64,000 bases of DNA, from IMG/VR virus record IMGVR_UViG_2648501839_000008. The stretch is one strand, 5' to 3'. The translations under genes and the position numbers were made by a program. Source of the stretch: a virus. Lineage: Duplodnaviria > Heunggongvirae > Uroviricota > Caudoviricetes. Below, piece by piece: positions 18,444 through 62,499 of the stretch. Numbering within the stretch: position 1 is the stretch's first letter; each line of letters starts with the position of its first letter. The notes under the pieces were generated by a model that worked only from the letters and a program-made list of their open reading frames with translations, ran no database searches and was not told the origin of the DNA.

Positions 18444-19228
18444 GTCTCATCTCCCTTGAGCAAGTCTCTGTGACGCAAGTGATGCGTCGTATGTTTCTGA
18501 TACATTCCGCCGTAATAAGCACGACAACTAAGGCGGTCGATCTGGTGATGAAGAATCATTCCATCGCCGATATAAACCGCGCAGTGGTCAGGCATTTTCC
18601 CGTATTGGATAAAGAAGATGTCCCCACGTTGAGGCTCTGTTCCGGGCGCAAGCCGTACCAATCCTTCGTTTCGGTAGTTCTGGTCGAGAATGTCGTTATC
18701 GCCGGTGTACCACGATGGAATATGCAGGTGTGCGTTCGGGTTTAGTTCGACGTTAAACTCACGCTTCAAATAGTCCCGACACAACATCCAGCAATCGAAT
18801 ACGCCAAATACATACGGTCTGCCCAGGTATGGCATTTCGAAACCATCAGGTGTGATCACATTCATCTCGCTAAAATGGAAAGGGGCATCTCCCTCAACAT
18901 TCTTGCGAATAGCCAGAATCATCCACGGAACTTCCGTCGCTTCGCAGCCTGCACGATCGGCATCAGATGCTTCTGCTGATTCATCAGTATGTGAATGCCA
19001 GATTGCGATAACATCACCCGCATCCTCTGCCGCCATAATGTCGTCAACGTGCATTACAAAAGTGTTCTGCGGGTTCTCCGAAACATTCCGCGCTTCCATA
19101 AAGCGATATTTGTCGCCATTAGTTCTAACCAGAAAGCCACACGCTTCATTAGGGTAGCGATTTATGGCGCAGAGATAGATTTGCTGCATAACGTCAGAGC
19201 CAAGCTCAGGGATTGCTTTATTACCCAT
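18431..19228 (-). CDS. Tail assembly protein K-like (MPN/JAB plus NlpC/P60 domains)
   Basis: Lambda gpK-like architecture and position; probable ATG at 19228 (track start is TTG). Confidence 0.7.
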   Translation of the reverse strand: MGNKAIPELGSDVMQQIYLCAINRYPNEACGFLVRTNGDKYRFMEARNVSENPQNTFVMHVDDIMAAEDAGDVIAIWHSHTDESAEASDADRAGCEATEVPWMILAIRKNVEGDAPFHFSEMNVITPDGFEMPYLGRPYVFGVFDCWMLCRDYLKREFNVELNPNAHLHIPSWYTGDNDILDQNYRNEGLVRLAPGTEPQRGDIFFIQYGKMPDHCAVYIGDGMILHHQIDRLSCRAYYGGMYQKHTTHHLRHRDLLKGDETCLS

Positions 19229-19919
19229 ACCGCGTAGCTCCAATAAATCCGCCAAAATGGATCACACCGTCGGCAAAATAATTCCGACGCGCATTACAGG
19301 CGTCATAACGTTTTGTGCAGTAATCCGCACCAGACATAGACGTCTGCTGGTTATTTTTGTCGAAATATGGACCGGTATATCCGCATTCTGGCCCTCGGTA
19401 TTTCCACGGGCAGGTGTTTTTAATGATCTGACGATACGGCAGTTGCACCCCCATCAAATCGAACACACTGGACAATTCAAACTCGACAACCTGATGAGTT
19501 TCGAGAGTTTTCTGTTCGATAAACCACATTTCATCAGGGAAATGTTGGTTTGGATCTGCTGTTGGGTTGCCGTCTTTAAAATTAACGGCATCGAGGAAGC
19601 GAGCCAGCGTCATCTTGCGAATAATGCGGCAGCCAACAAGATCGTCGTTCGCCTGAACTTCCGCAGAGACGGTTCCGGCAAAGTTCGATACCTGAATTTT
19701 TGGACGTGGCAACGTTCCCTGGCCCGTTTTGTCAAAGCCTGATGCTTTGATTGGCCACGGCTCGTATGTCACCCCTTGCCAGACGACCGGTTGCATCAGT
19801 TCGTTTGTTCCGGCGTGGAAGAATAGCTTCCCCCCTGAAGTTGTGTTCGACATATCCAGTACGAACAACTCAATGAGTGCAGAGGGAGATAAGCTCTGAA
19901 TATCAGCTTTAATTCCCAT
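19221..19919 (-). CDS. Minor tail protein L-like
   Basis: Shares with lambda gpL the ...ARFLDAVNF... and C-terminal Cys cluster (CPWKYRGPECGY...C...C); start at internal ATG with AAGGA RBS. Confidence 0.8.
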   Translation of the reverse strand: MGIKADIQSLSPSALIELFVLDMSNTTSGGKLFFHAGTNELMQPVVWQGVTYEPWPIKASGFDKTGQGTLPRPKIQVSNFAGTVSAEVQANDDLVGCRIIRKMTLARFLDAVNFKDGNPTADPNQHFPDEMWFIEQKTLETHQVVEFELSSVFDLMGVQLPYRQIIKNTCPWKYRGPECGYTGPYFDKNNQQTSMSGADYCTKRYDACNARRNYFADGVIHFGGFIGATRYG

Positions 19920-19981
19920 TGTTTCATCCTTGAAATAAGTAGGCGCTAACATCCTGTCAGCGCCACAATGATAGTAAATTA

Positions 19982-43924: not shown

Positions 43925-44048
43925 AATGCAGCCGTTTCCCGAAAAAATCCTGGCCGTTTCCCGTCGGCTCATGAATGCTTTCCTCGCCGTTTCTGAAAAT
44001 TTCCCTGCGGCAGCTGGTGGCTATAGATAAAGGGCCGTTTCTGGCCCT
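43925..44048. repeat. Iteron-like direct repeats (GCCGTTTCCCG/GCCGTTTCTG family), cluster 1
   Basis: At least 4 copies (about 43930, 43953, 43985, 44033); same repeat family as 46820-46960. Confidence 0.5.
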
Positions 44049-44056
44049 CTTCTCAG

Positions 44057-44539
44057 TTACACGCCATCAAGGATGTGGATGCGGTTGCTTGCGTATACAT
44101 TCAGCATAAAGTTAGCGCAAAACAGTTTCCATGTGTCAACGCCAGCGGTATACGTAATGTTTTTGCATTTAATCGCATTGTTGGCGATCCGCATCCCCTG
44201 CGATACTGCTTCATCGTCGGAAAATTTGAACGACGATTGAGTTTTAATCCAGAAAGAAATCTGCGTAGCGAACTCAATCAGCTTGGACTGGCAGAATCGC
44301 CCGGAGCGCACCGGAAAGACGAACGTTCCGAATCCAGAATTTACCACATACGCTTTCTCAAATACCCGCGAGTAACGACGATTGCCAATGATGTCGCGTG
44401 CAATAATGCATTTTTCTTGTGCTGACAGTTCTACCGTCTCATTGTCGCGCCATGCACCAAGTACTCGTTTTTCAATGTCAGAGAACGTTACAGCGATATT
44501 GCCATGTGCGGGTGCGTTTACAGTAGCGATAAAATTCAT
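44057..44539 (-). CDS. Hypothetical early protein (160 aa)
   Basis: ORF track; terminator hairpin GGGCCAGAAACGGCCC just 3' of the stop. Confidence 0.4.
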   Translation of the reverse strand: MNFIATVNAPAHGNIAVTFSDIEKRVLGAWRDNETVELSAQEKCIIARDIIGNRRYSRVFEKAYVVNSGFGTFVFPVRSGRFCQSKLIEFATQISFWIKTQSSFKFSDDEAVSQGMRIANNAIKCKNITYTAGVDTWKLFCANFMLNVYASNRIHILDGV

Positions 44540-45044: not shown

Positions 45045-45110
45045 AAACATGTTGTTTTCTTGTTGTTGTAATTATCGCAGCGAGATAAAGGCAGAAAACA
45101 AATTGTTATC
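45045..45110 (-). promoter_or_regulatory. Class-A sites (two palindromes flanking TGCGATAATTA)
   Basis: aaacatgttgttttct + tgttgtaattatcgca + gaaaacaaattgttatc. Confidence 0.5.
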
Positions 45111-46140: not shown

Positions 46141-46470
46141 TTACGCGAATACCTCAAGAAACTCCTGAACGTCCCAATGCTGGACGAGGTGAAGATAGAC
46201 CTTAGAAATCACGTCATTTTCGCTATCGCATGTGAAGTAGTACTTCTGGCTGCGGTTGTATGTGTCCACACAAAATTCGCTCATATCCATAAAGTCAGCA
46301 TCTTCACCCATGTCGCAAATCATCAAAGCAGGTGCGTCATCACGAGTCATCAGCTCAAGCACCCACCGCGAATTGATCAGAGTGGAAGACCAACCTTCTA
46401 ACTCATAAAACTGATCAAACTCTTTTTGAGTTAATTTCTTGATTTGGTTGATGTCGATATTTGCAAACAT
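46141..46470 (-). CDS. Small acidic early protein
   Basis: ORF track trimmed to the ATG at 46470 (AAGGA RBS); the track start lies inside the class-A palindrome. Confidence 0.4.
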   Translation of the reverse strand: MFANIDINQIKKLTQKEFDQFYELEGWSSTLINSRWVLELMTRDDAPALMICDMGEDADFMDMSEFCVDTYNRSQKYYFTCDSENDVISKVYLHLVQHWDVQEFLEVFA

Positions 46471-46482
46471 AAAGCAATCCTT

Positions 46483-46520
46483 AAACAACATGTTTTCTTG
46501 ATGGTGTTATTATCGCAATA
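46483..46520 (-). promoter_or_regulatory. Class-A site
   Basis: aaacaacatgttttct + gatggtgttattatcgcaat (TGcGATAAT on the minus strand). Confidence 0.5.
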
Positions 46521-46819
46521 ACGCACAGGCGAAAAAGGATTTTATTCCGGTGAATGTGGTTTTGGCAGTGAGTTTTCAGGTTCAGTACCGAGTACACTTT
46601 TTACATTATTCTGATTTAGTGGCTGGTGGGCAGAATAATCCTCTCCCCGAAAACCTACTGAAATCGATTGTGACCCGTTGGCTGTCTGGCACAATTACGC
46701 TGTAGCTGGGCATTCAGAGGGAATCCAGCGGTAAGCAAGTCCGCCTACGTGAGCGCCTCTCTTCTTCCCGCACATTACAGGTGGGTAGCCGCAACTCTCC
46801 CTCTCGCTATACCGGTACG

Positions 46820-46960
46820 CCACCTTTCCTGAACCGGCATCGAGCCTTCTCCCGAAATCCACACAGGCAACTCGACCGTTTCCCTGAAAACCTCCAGCCG
46901 TTCCCCGAAGGCAACCCAGCCGTTTCTGTAGCGGGATGCAGCCTTTTCCCTGTATGGACC
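46820..46960. repeat. Iteron-like direct repeats with ~21-22 bp periodicity, cluster 2
   Basis: Five to six copies of cAGCCgTTtCCCtGaa-like units (46842, 46873, 46895, 46917, 46938). Confidence 0.55.
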
Positions 46961-46999
46961 GAAGGCTGACCGTAGGGGTGTTACGGGGGATAAAATCAG

Positions 47000-47960
47000 G
47001 AGTTGAATAAATACGAAAAAGGAGGCGACACCCCTCCTTCCCTCCCCACTTATACATACCTGGCTTCTTCGCTATGCATGTTGTGTTTTATCTGTCTCAA
47101 CCTCTCTATAGGCGTTAATGCTCACTCCTTCCAGAATGTTCTATACGGCGACTATTTCTGTTGGTGAATTGGGTGTGTTGTTTTCTCTGTCGGTGTATGT
47201 GGTTTCGTTCGTTTTGCGGTGGTTCTTCTATGGGGTGTTCTCGTCGTTTTGGTGATTGTTCTTCTCCATGTATGGAGTAATGGCAGGTGGGCGAATCCTT
47301 TCGTTATTGTGTTTGAGTTGTTTGTCTGGAGTGTGTGAAGGGCTTTTGTAGTTATTCGTGTATTGGGTAATGGCGTTTCCCGTGATTGTTATGTTTCGTG
47401 TCTTTTGGGATTGAGAGAATCCTTGCGGTTACAGGCTTCGTTGGGTTTTCAGTGATTCTGGTGTTTCTTCGCTGTTTGGGGAATGGCGTGTCGTGGGTAT
47501 CGCGCGTATGAATGTTTTCGGATTGCCTGTGAAAGTTAGGTTGGCTGTCCGGTAGCCTGGGGAGAAGAGGTGGGTCTTTTCGGTAGCCTGCCATAAAGAG
47601 GTTGGTTGTTTTGGGGAATGGCATGTGTGTTATTTAGTTGTTTTGTTATAGCTGAAAATAAGTTGTTTATATAGTTATGTAACGCAATGGGAGTGATTTT
47701 GAGCGTGTGTTTTTTCTTGGTAGTGTGTTGGGTCGTCTGTGGTGAAAATTGGACGCTGTGGCGCTGTCTGCTGCGTAGAATTACGGGTATAAGAAGTGAT
47801 GTGTGAATACGTCAATTTTTTAGACCAAATCGGGTGAAAGCGTTGACGTTTCGTTGATCTGTTATTTAGTTGTTTTCTTATTGGTATAAACAACGTTAAC
47901 CTATTGATATTTAAAGGTGTGATTGCAGGTATGGAAGAAGAGTAGTGGCGATCAACGGAT
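47000..47960. repeat. Noncoding, strand-biased (G+T-rich on plus) degenerate repeat region
   Basis: No credible ORF; recurrent GGGGAATGGCGTGT-like and CGGTAGCCTGG..GAGGTGGGT-like units; the latter also occur at 44615-44690. Confidence 0.5.
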
Positions 47961-48022
47961 TCTTATAGAAAAGAATCAAATTGTGACCGCCATTATCAAC
48001 TGATTGATTAAGCTAATTACAC

Positions 48023-49252
48023 TCAAACATCCCCGTTCTTAATCCACTGCCTGACTTGCTCGTCTTGTGCGACTTCTTTCTCATGTTTGGCAATATACAA
48101 GTCTGGCAATAGGGGTGGAGCGAATTCAGGCTCTGTCGCACGCCACTTTTCATATGCGTCACGCATGGATTTCTCAACATTCCAATGCTCCAACTCTTGG
48201 TATTCAATCGGCCAGTTATCCTGCAATCTCTTCACTGCATTAGCCAGGTCGTATCGGAAGTAAGGATTAAGACCAATGAAATTACCAGCCAGCATGTCAT
48301 CAACCTCCTTCACTCTGGCAATCTTAGAAAACTTACCAATAGCAATGTTGAGGTCCCAATCTGACACGAACAACAAAAGTGCTGCAAATGCCAGAAACTT
48401 AGCTTCCCCGTATGCTCTGTCGCTAACCGTTTTTGTCTGAAACTCAATGTAATTGCCCATCACAAAACTAGTAAGCTTACAGGTATTACTTATCTCGTCC
48501 TCCAAATGCGATGGATCGAGAATTGTGCGGTCACGATTATTGTTTATGTGTTCTAAGATTACAGCAATGTCTCTATGTGAGACTGAAATTTCACGCAATT
48601 GCTGGAGAGTCTTGATGTGAACTCTTAGCACCTCTTTGTCAATCGCACGCTTCCAAGAAAAACCAGGCACAGTAACCTGAATGGGCGCGAAAGGTAGAAT
48701 ATCAGGAGTTGTCCATGCTAGATATGCATCACGTAACCCACTAATATAATAAAGCCAGTCTAAATGCTCGCTTTCTAACCATATTTCAAATGTGGAATCC
48801 TTTCGCTTATTGAAGAACCATTCCCTCATCTGCCACATTTTTTCTTGAGTAAATATCCCTTCCTGTATGCCGGCACAGACCAGCTTTCGTATTACCTGCG
48901 AATACTTTGTTCGATCTTTTGTGAATGAGACAAGGTGCTGCTTCACCTCAGATGTTAGTCTATCTCCATAGAAATCACATGATGGATGATGGCCTTGACC
49001 ATCTTCACCGGTAAATCTGAAATGCGCCTTCTTGTGATAGCCACCATTCCTAGTGGCTCTAACGAACGAACCACCTCCAACTTTGCAAATGGGGCAGATG
49101 ATATCGTCACGGGCAATAGCATGAACCGAGCTGTCATCTAAATTCTTTAGCGCCAAGTACTGCTCAGGATCGACTTCTTTTTGTAACGATTTTGAAAAAG
49201 CGGTATCAGTCATTCCAAGCTCCGAGCAAGGGGTTATTTGTTCAATTATCAT
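48023..49252 (-). CDS. Hypothetical protein (409 aa) with N-terminal Cys/His cluster
   Basis: ORF track; ...CPICKVGGG...HHPSCDF... possible zinc-binding motif; AT-richer than the structural genes. Confidence 0.45.
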   Translation of the reverse strand: MIIEQITPCSELGMTDTAFSKSLQKEVDPEQYLALKNLDDSSVHAIARDDIICPICKVGGGSFVRATRNGGYHKKAHFRFTGEDGQGHHPSCDFYGDRLTSEVKQHLVSFTKDRTKYSQVIRKLVCAGIQEGIFTQEKMWQMREWFFNKRKDSTFEIWLESEHLDWLYYISGLRDAYLAWTTPDILPFAPIQVTVPGFSWKRAIDKEVLRVHIKTLQQLREISVSHRDIAVILEHINNNRDRTILDPSHLEDEISNTCKLTSFVMGNYIEFQTKTVSDRAYGEAKFLAFAALLLFVSDWDLNIAIGKFSKIARVKEVDDMLAGNFIGLNPYFRYDLANAVKRLQDNWPIEYQELEHWNVEKSMRDAYEKWRATEPEFAPPLLPDLYIAKHEKEVAQDEQVRQWIKNGDV

Positions 49253-49383
49253 TCGGAATTATTTACTGTCTCGCCCAGTTTCACGTCATTTTATTCCCTA
49301 GTCTAGCTTTTCTAGGGTATACAGCTTATTACAAGCTCCTCATTATTAACTGTTTCCGTAACTCATTGATCCGCTTATACACT

Positions 49384-49683
49384 CTACCAACACCAGCACT
49401 CAAGCCCTTCAACGATCGGCGCACCACAATCAAAATGTACAGAGTCAAAGCCTACATCAAGTACTTTCTGAATGTTAGCAATCGCGCCTTCGGATATACC
49501 ATATCGACGCAAGTCGTCTTTCCAGACATCATCCTGTAACCCGGCGTGGACAATACAACCGCCATCAATTTGTGAAACCCAATCCAGCTCATTGCTTGCG
49601 ATCATGAATCGGCGAGCATCTTCCTCTGATGTATGAGATGAACTGATCAATGCCACCTGGTAGGCTTGGGTAATGTTCAACAT
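49384..49683 (-). CDS. Hypothetical early protein
   Basis: ORF track trimmed to the ATG at 49683 with GGAG RBS. Confidence 0.4.
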   Translation of the reverse strand: MLNITQAYQVALISSSHTSEEDARRFMIASNELDWVSQIDGGCIVHAGLQDDVWKDDLRRYGISEGAIANIQKVLDVGFDSVHFDCGAPIVEGLECWCW

Positions 49684-49695
49684 TTCAACCACTCC

Positions 49696-49762
49696 GAAAC
49701 AATTTGTTTTCTTATGTGGCTTATTATCTCAATCAACAAAAGGTAGAAAACAAATTGTTTTA
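49696..49762 (-). promoter_or_regulatory. Class-A sites (two palindromes)
   Basis: gaaacaatttgttttct ... ttattatctc ... gaaaacaaattgtttta. Confidence 0.5.
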
Positions 49763-49797
49763 GGGCTTGTGTAAATCAGGAGGGATTGTGTCTATAT

Positions 49798-49825
49798 GAA
49801 AAATGCCCAGCGTGTTGCCGGGCAT
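49798..49825 (-). terminator. Rho-independent terminator of metG
   Basis: ATGCCCGG...CTGGGCAT stem plus TTTTT on the minus strand, 20 nt after the metG stop. Confidence 0.7.
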
Positions 49826-49845: not shown

Positions 49846-51879
49846 TTACTTAACCTGGTGGCCAGGTTTAGCACCAGCATCCGGGCTTAACAGGAAGATA
49901 TCTTTCCCGCCGGGGCCAGCAGCCATCACCATACCTTCGGAGATGCCGAAGCGCATCTTACGCGGAGCCAGGTTAGCCACCATAATGGTGTGACGACCAA
50001 TCAGTGCCTGTGGGTCTGGATAAGCAGAACGGATGCCTGAGAAGACATTGCGTTTTTCACCGCCGAGATCCAGCGTCAGGCGCAGCAGTTTGTCAGAACC
50101 TTCAACAAACTCTGCGTTTTCGATCAGTGCCACGCGCAGGTCAACTTTGGCAAAGTCGTCAAAGGTGATGGTTTCCTGAATCGGGTCGTCTGCCAGCGGG
50201 CCAGTAACTGGCGCGGCAGTAGCTTTCACTTCTTCTTTAGACGCTTCCACCAATGCTTCCACCTGTTTCATGTCGATACGGTTATACAGTGCTTTGAACG
50301 GATTCACTTTATGGCCCAGCAGCGGTTGCTGGATGCCATCCCAGGTCAGTTCCGTATTCAGGAATGCTTCCGCACGTTCTGTCAGTTTCGGCAGTACCGG
50401 TTTCAGGTAAGTCATCAGCACGCGGAACAGGTTGATGCCCATTGAGCAAATCGCCTGCAGGTCAGCATCGCGACCTTCCTGTTTTGCGACTACCCAAGGA
50501 GCCTGCTCGTCGACATAGCGGTTAGCCAGGTCAGCCAGTGCCATGATTTCACGGATAGCTTTACCAAATTCGCGGCTTTCCCACGCTTCACCAATCACTT
50601 CAGCGGCATCAGTGAAGGTTTTGTACAACTGCGGGTCAGCCAGCTCGCTTGCCAGCACACCGTCAAAACGCTTATTGATAAAGCCAGCGTTACGGGACGC
50701 CAGGTTAACCACTTTGTTCACGATATCGGCATTCACACGCTGAACGAAATCCTCCAGGTTGAGATCGATATCATCAATGCGCGAAGAGAGTTTCGCAGTG
50801 TAGTAGTAACGCAGGCTGTCAGCGTCAAAATGATTCAACCAGGTGCTGGCTTTAATAAAGGTGCCGCGAGACTTGGACATCTTCGCGCCGTTCACCGTCA
50901 CATAGCCGTGAACAAACAGGTTGGTCGGCTTGCGGAAGTTGCTGCCTTCCAGCATGGCAGGCCAGAACAGGCTGTGGAAGTAAACGATATCTTTACCGAT
51001 GAAGTGGTACAGCTCGGCGGTGGAGTCTTTCTTCCAGTATTCATCGAAGCTGGTAGTGTCGCCGCGCTTGTCGCACAGATTCTTGAAGGAACCCATGTAG
51101 CCAATCGGTGCGTCCAGCCAGACGTAGAAATATTTACCCGGCGCGTTCGGAATTTCAAAACCGAAGTAAGGTGCGTCGCGGGAGATATCCCACTGTTGCA
51201 GACCAGATTCAAACCACTCCTGCATTTTGTTTGCCACCTGCTCCTGCAACGCACCGCTGCGGGTCCATGCCTGCAACATTTCGCTGAAAGAGGGCAGATC
51301 AAAGAAGAAGTGTTCAGAATCACGCATTACCGGGGTAGCACCAGAAACCACCGATTTCGGCTCGATCAGTTCAGTCGGGCTGTAGGTCGCGCCGCAAACT
51401 TCACAGTTATCGCCGTATTGATCTGGCGCTTTACATTTCGGGCAGGTGCCTTTCACAAAACGATCCGGCAGGAACATGCCTTTTTCCGGGTCGTACAACT
51501 GAGAGATAGTGCGATTTTTAATAAAACCGTTCTCTTTCAGGCGAGTATAGATAAGCTCAGACAACTGACGGTTCTCTTCGCTGTGCGTCGAGTGATAGTT
51601 GTCATAGCTGATGTTAAAGCCTGCGAAATCAGTCTGGTGTTCCTGACTCATTTCGCCAATCATCTGCTCCGGTGTGATACCAAGTTGCTGTGCTTTCAGC
51701 ATGATCGGCGTACCGTGGGCATCGTCGGCACAGATGAAATTAACCTCGTGGCCGCGCATTCGCTGGTAACGAACCCAGACATCAGCCTGGATGTGCTCCA
51801 GCATATGGCCGAGGTGGATTGAGCCGTTAGCGTACGGCAGCGCGCACGTCACCAGAATTTTCTTCGCGACTTGGGTCAT
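49846..51879 (-). CDS. metG: Methionyl-tRNA synthetase
   Basis: 677-aa translation from [26 protein letters not shown] (HIGH-type motif) through KMSKS to the C-terminal tRNA-binding domain; enterobacterial MetRS; true ATG at 51877-51879 (track ORF extended upstream). Confidence 0.95.
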
Positions 51880-52036
51880 AGTAGGCATTACTTCTTTGTA
51901 GTGAAAAGGGGCTTGATAGTAACAAAATGGCCTTATGTCTGCCATGTGATAACAGCATTTCTCATAAATGATTAAATGTCGCAGCTGGAGTACACTACAA
52001 GGCGACAATTGCGCAAATTAAAATAAAGGAGACGGG

Positions 52037-53137
52037 ATGAGCGAGTCCAAATCGCCGGATGCCCTGAGAGCAATGGTAGCCGGTACGCTGGCTAATTTTC
52101 AGCACCCAACCCTGAAACACAACCTGACTACGCTTAAAGCGTTACACCATGTTGCGTTGATGGATGACACACTGCATGTCGAACTAATCATGCCTTTCGT
52201 GTGGAATAAGCCTTTTGAAGACCTGAAAGAGCAATGTAGTGGTGATCTGCTCCGTATCACTGGCGCAAAGGCTATTGACTGGAAGCTGTCGTACAACATT
52301 GCCACGCTTAAGCGCGTCAAAAACCAACCAGGCATTAATGGTGTTAAGAATATTATCGCCGTAAGCTCAGGCAAGGGCGGTGTAGGCAAATCGTCCACAG
52401 CAGTAAACTTGGCACTGGCTTTGGCTGCTGAAGGTGCGAAAGTTGGTATTTTGGATGCCGATATCTATGGTCCATCAATTCCAACCATGCTGGGCGCGGA
52501 AAACCAACGTCCAACCTCACCTGACGGTACTCACATGGCACCTATCATGTCTCATGGCCTGGCAACCAACTCTATTGGTTATCTGGTCACCGACGACAAT
52601 GCAATGGTGTGGCGTGGACCGATGGCCAGCAAGGCGCTGATGCAGATGTTGCAGGAAACTCTATGGCCTGATCTGGACTATCTCGTTCTCGATATGCCGC
52701 CGGGCACTGGTGATATTCAGTTGACGCTGGCGCAGAACATTCCTGTAACTGGTGCGGTTGTGGTAACTACGCCGCAAGACATCGCGCTGATCGATGCGAA
52801 GAAAGGCATTGTGATGTTCGAAAAAGTCGAAGTGCCGGTACTAGGTATCGTCGAAAACATGAGTGTGCATATTTGCAGTAACTGCGGTCATCACGAGCCA
52901 ATTTTTGGCACCGGTGGCGCACAGAAACTGGCCGAGAAATACAACACGCAGTTGTTAGGCCAAATGCCACTTCATATCTCTCTTCGTGAAGATCTGGATA
53001 ACGGAACACCAACCGTTATTAGTCGTCCAGATAGCGAATTTACGGCTATTTATCGTGACCTCGCAGATCGCGTTGCTGCCCAAATGTATTGGCAAGGTGA
53101 AGTAATACCTGGCGAAATCGCATTCCGCGCAGTGTGA
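52037..53137 (+). CDS. apbC: Fe-S cluster carrier ATPase ApbC/Mrp
   Basis: Deviant Walker A SGKGGVGKSS, CxxC motif ...HICSNCGHH..., divergent from metG as in enterobacterial chromosomes; RBS AAGGAG. Confidence 0.9.
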   Translation: MSESKSPDALRAMVAGTLANFQHPTLKHNLTTLKALHHVALMDDTLHVELIMPFVWNKPFEDLKEQCSGDLLRITGAKAIDWKLSYNIATLKRVKNQPGINGVKNIIAVSSGKGGVGKSSTAVNLALALAAEGAKVGILDADIYGPSIPTMLGAENQRPTSPDGTHMAPIMSHGLATNSIGYLVTDDNAMVWRGPMASKALMQMLQETLWPDLDYLVLDMPPGTGDIQLTLAQNIPVTGAVVVTTPQDIALIDAKKGIVMFEKVEVPVLGIVENMSVHICSNCGHHEPIFGTGGAQKLAEKYNTQLLGQMPLHISLREDLDNGTPTVISRPDSEFTAIYRDLADRVAAQMYWQGEVIPGEIAFRAV

Positions 53138-53174
53138 TAAAAAGGTGGTGCAATGCACCACCTAAACAGTTCTC

Positions 53175-53564
53175 CTACATCACAGGACAATCATCAAACT
53201 CGCCACTTCTTGCGTCGTTGATAATGTGAGTGATCACACCAAACACGGCATTGCTGCCCGTGCATCCATCATCATCCTTTGGCAATGCTTCCTTCTTACC
53301 AGTTCTTAAATCCTCCAGATGCTGACGTGGATACTTCCGGTATCTTTTTACGCGATATTCCCCATCCAGAGCACATACAAGAAGAGATCCATCAACAGGA
53401 GTCAGTGAGGAATCGACCACCAGCAATGCACCCTGCAATATTCCCTCACGATGATGACTATCAGCCGCCCTCATGAAGTAGGTCGCTGAAGGATGTCTAA
53501 TTATCTGCTGATCAAGAGAAATACGGCTCTCAGCATAATCCGCCGCAGGAGAAGGGAAGCCCAT
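53175..53564 (-). CDS. UmuD-like (LexA/S24 peptidase family) protein
   Basis: C-terminal domain aligns with the UmuD/LexA catalytic core (Ser in ...AADSHH..., Lys in ...RVKRYRK...); SOS box immediately upstream. Confidence 0.65.
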   Translation of the reverse strand: MGFPSPAADYAESRISLDQQIIRHPSATYFMRAADSHHREGILQGALLVVDSSLTPVDGSLLVCALDGEYRVKRYRKYPRQHLEDLRTGKKEALPKDDDGCTGSNAVFGVITHIINDARSGEFDDCPVM

Positions 53565-58795: not shown

Positions 58796-58854
58796 CGTTG
58801 TTTTCTAGTTGTGGTTATTTTCACAAATAAGAAAAGGTAGAAAACAATTTATTT
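58796..58854 (-). promoter_or_regulatory. Class-A sites upstream of the nine-gene early operon
   Basis: ccgttgttttct + gttgtggttattttcac + gaaaacaatttattt. Confidence 0.5.
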
Positions 58855-61750: not shown

Positions 61751-61784
61751 AATAATTTGTTTTCTGATTGGTGTAATTATCGCA
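61751..61784 (-). promoter_or_regulatory. Class-A site
   Basis: aataatttgttttct + gtgtaattatcgca (TGCGATAAT on the minus strand). Confidence 0.5.
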
Positions 61785-62463: not shown

Positions 62464-62499
62464 AAACAAGTTGTTTTCTTATTGGTTTTATTGTGATGT
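62464..62499 (-). promoter_or_regulatory. Class-A site
   Basis: aaacaagttgttttct + ttggttttattgtgatg. Confidence 0.5.

Follow-up and report, generated by a model that had tools for sequence, protein, structure and literature searches.

Does a gene that ends exactly where a repeat-bearing noncoding region begins serve the replication of its element, or does it travel there as cargo? The question is raised by a minus-strand gene, here called X, in a 64,000-nucleotide stretch of the IMG/VR virus record IMGVR_UViG_2648501839_000008 (Caudoviricetes), the whole of which is referred to below as the window. A reading made from the letters of the window (the sequence-only reading) had described the product as a protein of 409 amino acids (aa) with a Cys/His cluster, and had suggested that it could be the replication initiator or a regulator acting on the adjoining repeats, or equally unrelated cargo. 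We find X to be accessory cargo, carried by an SSU5/pHCM2-like phage-plasmid in a slot of variable content. Its product most likely acts in trans and on its own, as part of the gene pool of phage-host conflict, and we put the probability that it has a defence-type function benefiting the lysogen or plasmid carrier at roughly one half. Phage-plasmids of this type are common in clinical Enterobacteriaceae, and sorting their core replication genes from swappable conflict cargo aids the reading of their biology.

A swappable slot beside a conserved noncoding region

Matches confined to plasmids, similarity to phage SSU5 and the content of the neighbouring genes together identify the window as part of an SSU5/pHCM2-like phage-plasmid of Escherichia coli rather than of a T7-like phage or a chromosomal island. 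The 3.4-kb region around X matches 245 complete E. coli genomes, on plasmids every time and on chromosomes never; the top match of positions 46400-49800 is a 110-kb E. coli plasmid at 98.8% identity, and the 110-kb E. coli plasmids as a group match the window at 98-99%. A chromosomal prophage beside metG was considered and is ruled out, because the entire region matches plasmids only. Relatives of protein X include SSU5_107 of Salmonella phage SSU5 (56% identity) and proteins of two Klebsiella phage records (109.6 kb). Terminase, ParB-like genes, a DEAD-box helicase, metG, apbC, and a umuD-like gene make up the annotated surroundings of X, and farther out in the near-identical plasmid lie nrdAB, dnaE, a DnaB-like helicase, a primase, and an initiator of the RepB family.

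The 3′ end of X does abut a noncoding region of about 1.5 kb, as had been reported. This stretch of 1,531 nucleotides (nt; 46492-48022), with no credible open reading frame (ORF) inside, begins at the end of the next gene (46141-46491) and directly adjoins the X stop codon (48023-48025). The repeats within it had been called iterons, a description that holds in part: short repeat families exist, but they are degenerate, and tandem iterons in 46492-48022 were rejected because Tandem Repeats Finder reports no array there, only degenerate motif clusters being present. The region is kept at 66-72% identity in plasmids of E. coli, Salmonella, Citrobacter, Enterobacter, and Klebsiella and in phage SSU5, a level of conservation at least equal to that of X.

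In adjoining a repeat-bearing noncoding region on a plasmid replicon, X resembles the iteron-type initiators (RepA, RepB, Rep_3), and the zinc motif described below could bind DNA. However, the element has a RepB-family initiator of its own, located elsewhere: in plasmid NZ_CP027358 it occupies 52266-53480, about 33 kb from X at 18771-19961, and the sister plasmids all type as IncFIB. Furthermore, X and the repeats are not inherited together. Plasmid records with the noncoding region number 840, against 267 with protein X (tblastn), the latter including some unrelated Acinetobacter, Ralstonia, and Burkholderia plasmids, and at least 573 plasmid records carry the region without X. Only 35 of the 245 matching E. 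coli genomes cover at least 80% of positions 46400-49800. Genes other than X occupy the position immediately upstream of the noncoding region in plasmids from Salmonella Tennessee and Klebsiella and in another E. coli plasmid, and in three loci (L012, L015, and L016) the slot contains a GIY-YIG nuclease with a 172-aa protein, or small ORFs; an Enterobacter plasmid has the GIY-YIG gene plus X. Slot coordinates are 1045-2484 in L012, 1020-2444 in L015, and 331-1167 in L014; the GIY-YIG nuclease is 278 aa long and the 172-aa protein is without a family match. Conversely, X occurs without the region. Downstream of its relatives (44-53% identity) in lambdoid prophages and other prophage-like viral contigs no similarity to the region is found, the inspected relatives in prophages, viral contigs, and chromosomes have coding genes directly downstream, and distant chromosomal homologues have wholly different surroundings. 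Finally, homology and structure searches found no Rep or DNA-binding family that resembles X by sequence or fold, and no winged-helix fold.

The slot of X is a hot spot for swappable cargo, and the conserved noncoding region that directly follows it is independent of X. The metG-apbC pair next door, which occurs at 223 plasmid places in the complete E. coli genomes, fits this picture. The evidence thus backs the option of unrelated cargo, whereas a role as replication initiator or as dedicated regulator of the adjacent region is essentially excluded and, in our estimate, extremely improbable. X can come off the list of replication candidates of SSU5/pHCM2-like phage-plasmids.

Defence genes beside X in bacterial genomes

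Loci encoding X were retrieved from genomes (56), metagenomes (79), and viruses (33), and 53 genome-derived loci were analysed, 49 of them from a genome scan and four from protein look-ups. Neighbours were scanned in part and with no control family, the Burkholderia neighbours being left out of the PADLOC scan. The Gabija genes gajA and gajB lie within 6 kb of X in 24 of the 53 loci, mostly directly adjacent, and their products match the PADLOC GajA and GajB models at E < 1e-160. Three GajA subfamilies are represented (PDLC00093/95, PDLC00099, and PDLC04168), as are four arrangements. The order X-gajA-gajB is found in Sphingomonas, Pseudomonas antarctica, Xanthobacter/Prosthecomicrobium, and Shewanella, the gaps measuring 136-222 nt; gajA-gajB-X occurs with about 70-230 nt in between; X and gajB-gajA can converge across 39 nt; and in the fourth arrangement one further gene intervenes. 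The Gabija-linked members are scattered across deep branches of the X tree, and more loci of this kind occur among the metagenome contigs.

Gabija is not the only system found beside X. Hachiman HamA/HamB ends 52 nt upstream of X in loci L019 and L020, Lamassu LmuB-like genes adjoin it in L029 and L031, Shedu lies beside it in L008 (one of the look-up loci), and the PADLOC candidate PDC-S02 is directly upstream in eight loci. Among metagenome neighbours are a type II CBASS Cap2 with a SAVED effector (30-nt gap), IetS, and the PADLOC candidates PDC-S20, S25, and S49. Altogether, known or candidate defence genes stand beside X in at least 29 of the 53 genome-derived loci (24 Gabija, two Hachiman, two Lamassu-like, and one PDC-S02). 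When X sequences are grouped into lineages at 60% identity, 25 lineages have adequate flanks; Gabija is present in six of these and any PADLOC-recognised neighbour in at least 11 (a tally across scans), while 19, including the lineage of the window, are without Gabija within reach. Neither the window nor any phage-plasmid X locus encodes GajA or GajB.

A conserved upstream partner, as expected of a two-gene system, was sought and rejected, the upstream genes varying among lineages. The lack of a conserved partner gene leads us to regard X as an autonomous module. In some alphaproteobacterial islands with an integrase (L027, L031, L032, L035, L036, L043, L097, and L140), a 257-aa protein family is encoded about 60 nt upstream of X; it has no PADLOC or Pfam match and may be a lineage-specific partner. 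Some of these islands also carry an ORF that, read by eye, is RadC-like.

In phages and prophages the setting is a different one. Lambdoid prophages carry X in their nin region, between O-like/DnaC-like replication genes and NinB/NinG/Q; in a P2-like prophage of Pseudomonas viridiflava it follows umuDC, with UmuD-UmuC directly upstream; and in SSU5-like elements it is located in an early-looking region. The X family lives in mobile-element hot spots and bacterial defence islands.

A proposed defence-type role and its rivals

Three considerations favour a defence-type function of X. First, direct adjacency to many defence systems is a classical signature of defence genes, and in chromosomes many different systems directly adjoin X. 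Second, X stands beside intact Gabija in many lineages, where keeping an inhibitor would be self-defeating. Third, temperate phages and phage-plasmids often carry defence cargo. X is most similar to orphan genes of defence islands and to the PDC candidates of PADLOC, which are nominated by guilt by association of the Doron type: it is likewise stand-alone, about 380 aa long and without a conserved partner, is carried on prophages, plasmids, and integrase-bearing islands, and has Gabija, Hachiman, Lamassu, CBASS, Shedu, IetAS, and PDC candidates as direct neighbours. If X is a new defence gene, or a modulator of the Gabija type, it would represent a new protein class in phage-host conflict; if it is inert, it is ordinary cargo.

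Several observations weigh against a defence-type role, and some of them also set X apart from the PDC candidates. First, X is absent from PADLOC-DB v2, candidate sets included, and has no recognisable catalytic or effector domain (nuclease, TIR, SIR2, or transmembrane segment). Second, the counts of defence neighbours are uncorrected for shared ancestry, and many of the Gabija-linked loci are related alphaproteobacterial islands. Third, no known defence neighbour was seen among the partly scanned neighbours of the Serratia group, the cyanobacteria, a metagenome group (L134/L135/L138/L148), and L104. Finally, the position of X in early and replication regions of phages suits a function in the lytic cycle or in counter-defence better than a defence expressed by the lysogen.

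This early or nin-region position makes counter-defence the main rival. X would then be an early protein with which phages and phage-plasmids neutralise a DNA-sensing nuclease-helicase system of the host, for example Gabija, and the chromosomal copies beside Gabija, Hachiman, and Lamassu would represent relatives resident in islands, or else negative regulators built into the loci. Consistent with this are the nin-region position of X in lambdoid prophages, its place in an early-gene cluster with repeated operator-bearing promoters in SSU5-like elements, and its striking adjacency to Gabija. DUF5983 and RadC genes are typical of establishment regions of mobile elements; a DUF5983 gene neighbours X in the window, and RadC genes recur near X. 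However, X adjoins intact Gabija of three subtypes, in four arrangements and in many lineages, and an inhibitor in such a place would shut the system down and should not be stably kept. X also adjoins mechanistically different systems (CBASS, the SIR2-like PDC-S25, and IetAS). We therefore consider counter-defence unlikely, if worth keeping in view. The comparison with Gad1 and Gad2 of Bacillus SPbeta-like phages points the same way. These proteins are likewise phage-borne, about 300-400 aa long, without annotated function, encoded at a swappable locus and linked by a Gabija theme, but X is also common in chromosomes beside intact Gabija. No chain in the PDB, the deposited Gad1 complexes presumably included, matches X by sequence or fold, so that X is not Gad1-like. 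Gad2 is a predicted nucleotidyltransferase with the sequence MSYQFEKNKLY... (10.1101/2023.05.01.538930), and, compared by eye with part of that sequence, X looks unrelated.

A different possibility, to which we give a similarly small share of belief, is that nuclease-helicase systems that sense DNA (Gabija above all, but also Hachiman and Lamassu) have in X a previously unrecognised, facultative partner or modulator, which bacteria would keep beside these systems and which phages, prophages, and phage-plasmids would have captured, fully conserved, to manipulate immunity or to arm their hosts. If true, X would combine a new fold with a new functional class tied to one of the commonest defence systems.

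More doubtful is the narrower proposal that X is a facultative accessory or regulatory subunit of OLD-nuclease/UvrD-helicase immunity of the Gabija type, sensing a cue or tuning GajAB, with the phage-plasmid copy a captured orphan. The predominance of Gabija among the neighbours of X, across three subtypes, suggests a Gabija-specific link. Bona fide GajA/GajB near X in 24 of 53 genome loci and in further metagenome loci, the short gaps of the co-directional arrangements, and the scatter of linked members over deep branches of the X tree are all consistent with it. Against this, 19 of the 25 X lineages are without Gabija, X also follows Hachiman, Lamassu, CBASS, and other systems, and convergent arrangements occur. 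In addition, canonical Gabija is reported to be a two-gene system (PMC10781630). X has no homology to GajA, an OLD-family ATPase/TOPRIM nuclease (AAA_15 and OLD TOPRIM), or to GajB, a UvrD-like helicase. X as "GajC" is ruled out as well, the GajC of type II Gabija being a different, MazF-like protein that replaces GajA (PMC13069673).

A role in DNA repair or recombination, as an accessory of the nin type (Orf/NinB, Rap/NinG) carried by mobile elements and unrelated to immunity, is improbable. In its favour, lambdoid prophages have X between their replication genes and NinB/NinG, UmuD-UmuC directly precedes X in the P. viridiflava prophage, a umuD-like gene lies 4 kb away in the window, and a large ORF near X in L027 resembles, read by eye, an error-prone polymerase. 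Against it, there are few such links, all of them to neighbourhoods in which cargo is common; no known recombination or repair family is homologous to X; and defence systems are the dominant neighbourhood signal.

The gene, its protein and the flanking DNA

The ORF of 409 codons is present on the minus strand at 48023-49252, as listed. The product is very probably shorter, at 396 aa, with its true start at the ATG at 49213 (M14 of the listed ORF), because four observations agree. A GGAG motif lies 6 nt 5′ of this ATG; the RefSeq gene call in the 98.8%-identical plasmid is 1,191 nt long (WP_047659412.1); nearly all aligned homologues share an N-terminus M-x-x-T-A-F/Y-S, located at the 49213 start; and the sole promoter-like site (49272-49245) extends across the upstream ATG, so that transcription would begin downstream of the ATG at 49252. 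The features of the gene are as follows, with residues numbered on the 396-aa form.

48023-49213, minus strand: X coding sequence, 396 aa, including the TGA stop at 48023-48025; member of phrog_12525 and homologue of SSU5_107
49214-49252, minus strand: 13 extra codons of the 409-aa ORF, probably untranslated; 5′ leader with the GGAG ribosome-binding site
49245-49272, minus strand: weak sigma-70-like promoter candidate (GAGACA, 16 nt, GATAAT; 9 of 12 consensus matches)
48908-49213, minus strand: N-terminal alpha/beta domain, residues 1-102, with S7, E13, D15, Q18, the C40-x2-C43 knuckle, F65/F67 in AHFRF, and H75-x3-C79
48977-49096, minus strand: putative C2HC zinc site, from CPIC to HHPSC, with four invariant ligand positions
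48026-48907, minus strand: C-terminal domain, residues 103-396, all-helical in the AlphaFold model
48353-48397, minus strand: conserved core helix FLAFAALLLFVSDWD of the C-terminal domain
48260-48289, minus strand: conserved loop/strand AGNFIGLNPY of the C-terminal domain

The Cys/His cluster noted in the N-terminus is present and conserved. CPIC corresponds to residues 40-43 (49085-49096) and HHPSC to residues 75-79 (48977-48991), and C40, C43, H75, and C79 are invariant in 50 homologues with identities as low as 25%, and likewise in an N-terminal alignment of 24 sequences. Because four positions are invariant in 50 homologues, the cluster is a conserved motif and not a chance occurrence, and the invariant C-x2-C...H-x3-C pattern supports, at the level of sequence, its assignment as a putative zinc site. 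Further residues invariant in the 50 sequences are S7, E13, D15, Q18, F65, and F67, together with R130, A275, L281, N311, G314, and L315 in the C-terminal domain, and the phage-plasmid copy keeps all of them.

The AlphaFold model of X has a mean predicted local distance difference test (pLDDT) of 88.5 and a predicted template modelling score (pTM) of 0.81, and no structural neighbour was found for it in the PDB, nor a fold match for the N-terminal domain alone. A family profile searched against PDB sequences gave no match, and X has no Pfam, NCBIfam, or PADLOC match; it falls in phrog_12525 (PHROG match 5e-209), the function of which is not annotated. The family comprises 86 clusters in a collection of 5.8 billion proteins and 218 representatives among 1.84 billion proteins, the full-length ones being stand-alone proteins of about 340-440 aa, and its hosts are Enterobacterales, Alpha-, Beta-, and Gammaproteobacteria, cyanobacteria, and one flavobacterium. 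X thus belongs to a small, uncharacterised orphan family, with a fold that looks new in the model. The order of its motifs (CPxC, a strand with (A)HF(R)F, and a His/Cys pair) is similar to that of the N-terminal zinc ribbon of the CoiA type (C-P-x-C ... H-F-A-H ... C), a resemblance that serves as a lead only. Unlike CoiA, X has no Pfam match to CoiA, HNH, or zinc-ribbon models above noise, no fold match for its N-terminal domain, and no PD-(D/E)xK domain after it; an HNH/His-Me, CoiA, or PD-(D/E)xK nuclease identity for the N-terminal domain was rejected on these grounds.

Within a defence-type role, the biochemistry of X can be sketched only speculatively, because it has no recognisable catalytic or effector domain and we infer every step. 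The N-terminal C2HC domain, together with the invariant E13, D15, and Q18 and the conserved H64 and R66, could form a nucleic-acid-binding or catalytic site. Such a site would recognise a DNA or protein cue related to infection, and the helical C-terminal domain, as effector or scaffold, would transmit or execute the response.

The statement that X has its own class-A promoter was not confirmed by comparison with the repeated promoter of the element. That family, GATAAT-AA-N7-AAGAAAACA, has six copies against 0.02 expected, all on the minus strand (45053-45076, 46491-46514, 49705-49728, 58799-58822, 61758-61781, and 62472-62495) and all just upstream of other minus-strand genes; the copy nearest to X, at 49705, precedes the DUF5983 gene. 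None stands in front of X, whose generic sigma-70 candidate is of another kind and is not significant, a consensus scan of the region giving two such matches against 6.4 in shuffles. The gene had also been described as AT-richer, which is correct, although the difference is modest (43.3% GC against 46.5% for the window). About 40 nt upstream of three of the promoter-family copies, the plus strand carries a TAGAAAACAA/CAGAAAACAA partner in inverted orientation (45092, 49744, and 58838), and from their sequence these paired sites look like paired operators of one repressor.

The noncoding region has several conserved features of its own. Its minus strand is G-poor over about 950 nt (47050-48000: A 369, C 275, T 178, G 129). 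Conserved short repeats comprise motifs of the GCCATTACYC type, CACCTCTT...CAGGCTACCG units, CGTTGA in both orientations, and four copies of GGGAAAMGG spaced 22-44 nt apart. A conserved promoter-like site (TTGACG, 18 nt, TATACC) was read by eye from the alignment near 47815-47780. On the minus strand at 47016-47042 lies a terminator-like hairpin, GGGAAGGAGGGGTGTCGCCTCCTTTTT, which is partly conserved in other plasmids and could end a transcript from that site, about 770 nt upstream. Rfam gave no match in the noncoding region at gathering score or at E values up to 10, and a structured RNA in the UUCG-containing stretch (46690-47010) was rejected, the minimum free energy z-score being about +1.0 on both strands, with no Rfam match. 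A second small repeat cluster of the GGGAAACGG type is found at 43932-44020, with two exact copies 22 nt apart on the minus strand (43932 and 43954); it lies just downstream of a 160-aa ORF (44057-44539) and resembles the array at 46845-46950.

Beyond X, the window contains a lone umuD-like S24 peptidase gene (53175-53564), with no umuC adjacent, beside the metG-apbC/mrp pair. This pair (49846-53137), of which metG encodes methionyl-tRNA synthetase, is plasmid cargo about 90% identical to the pair on the E. coli chromosome, and metG on the phage-plasmid is thus a diverged second copy of a housekeeping aminoacyl-tRNA synthetase.

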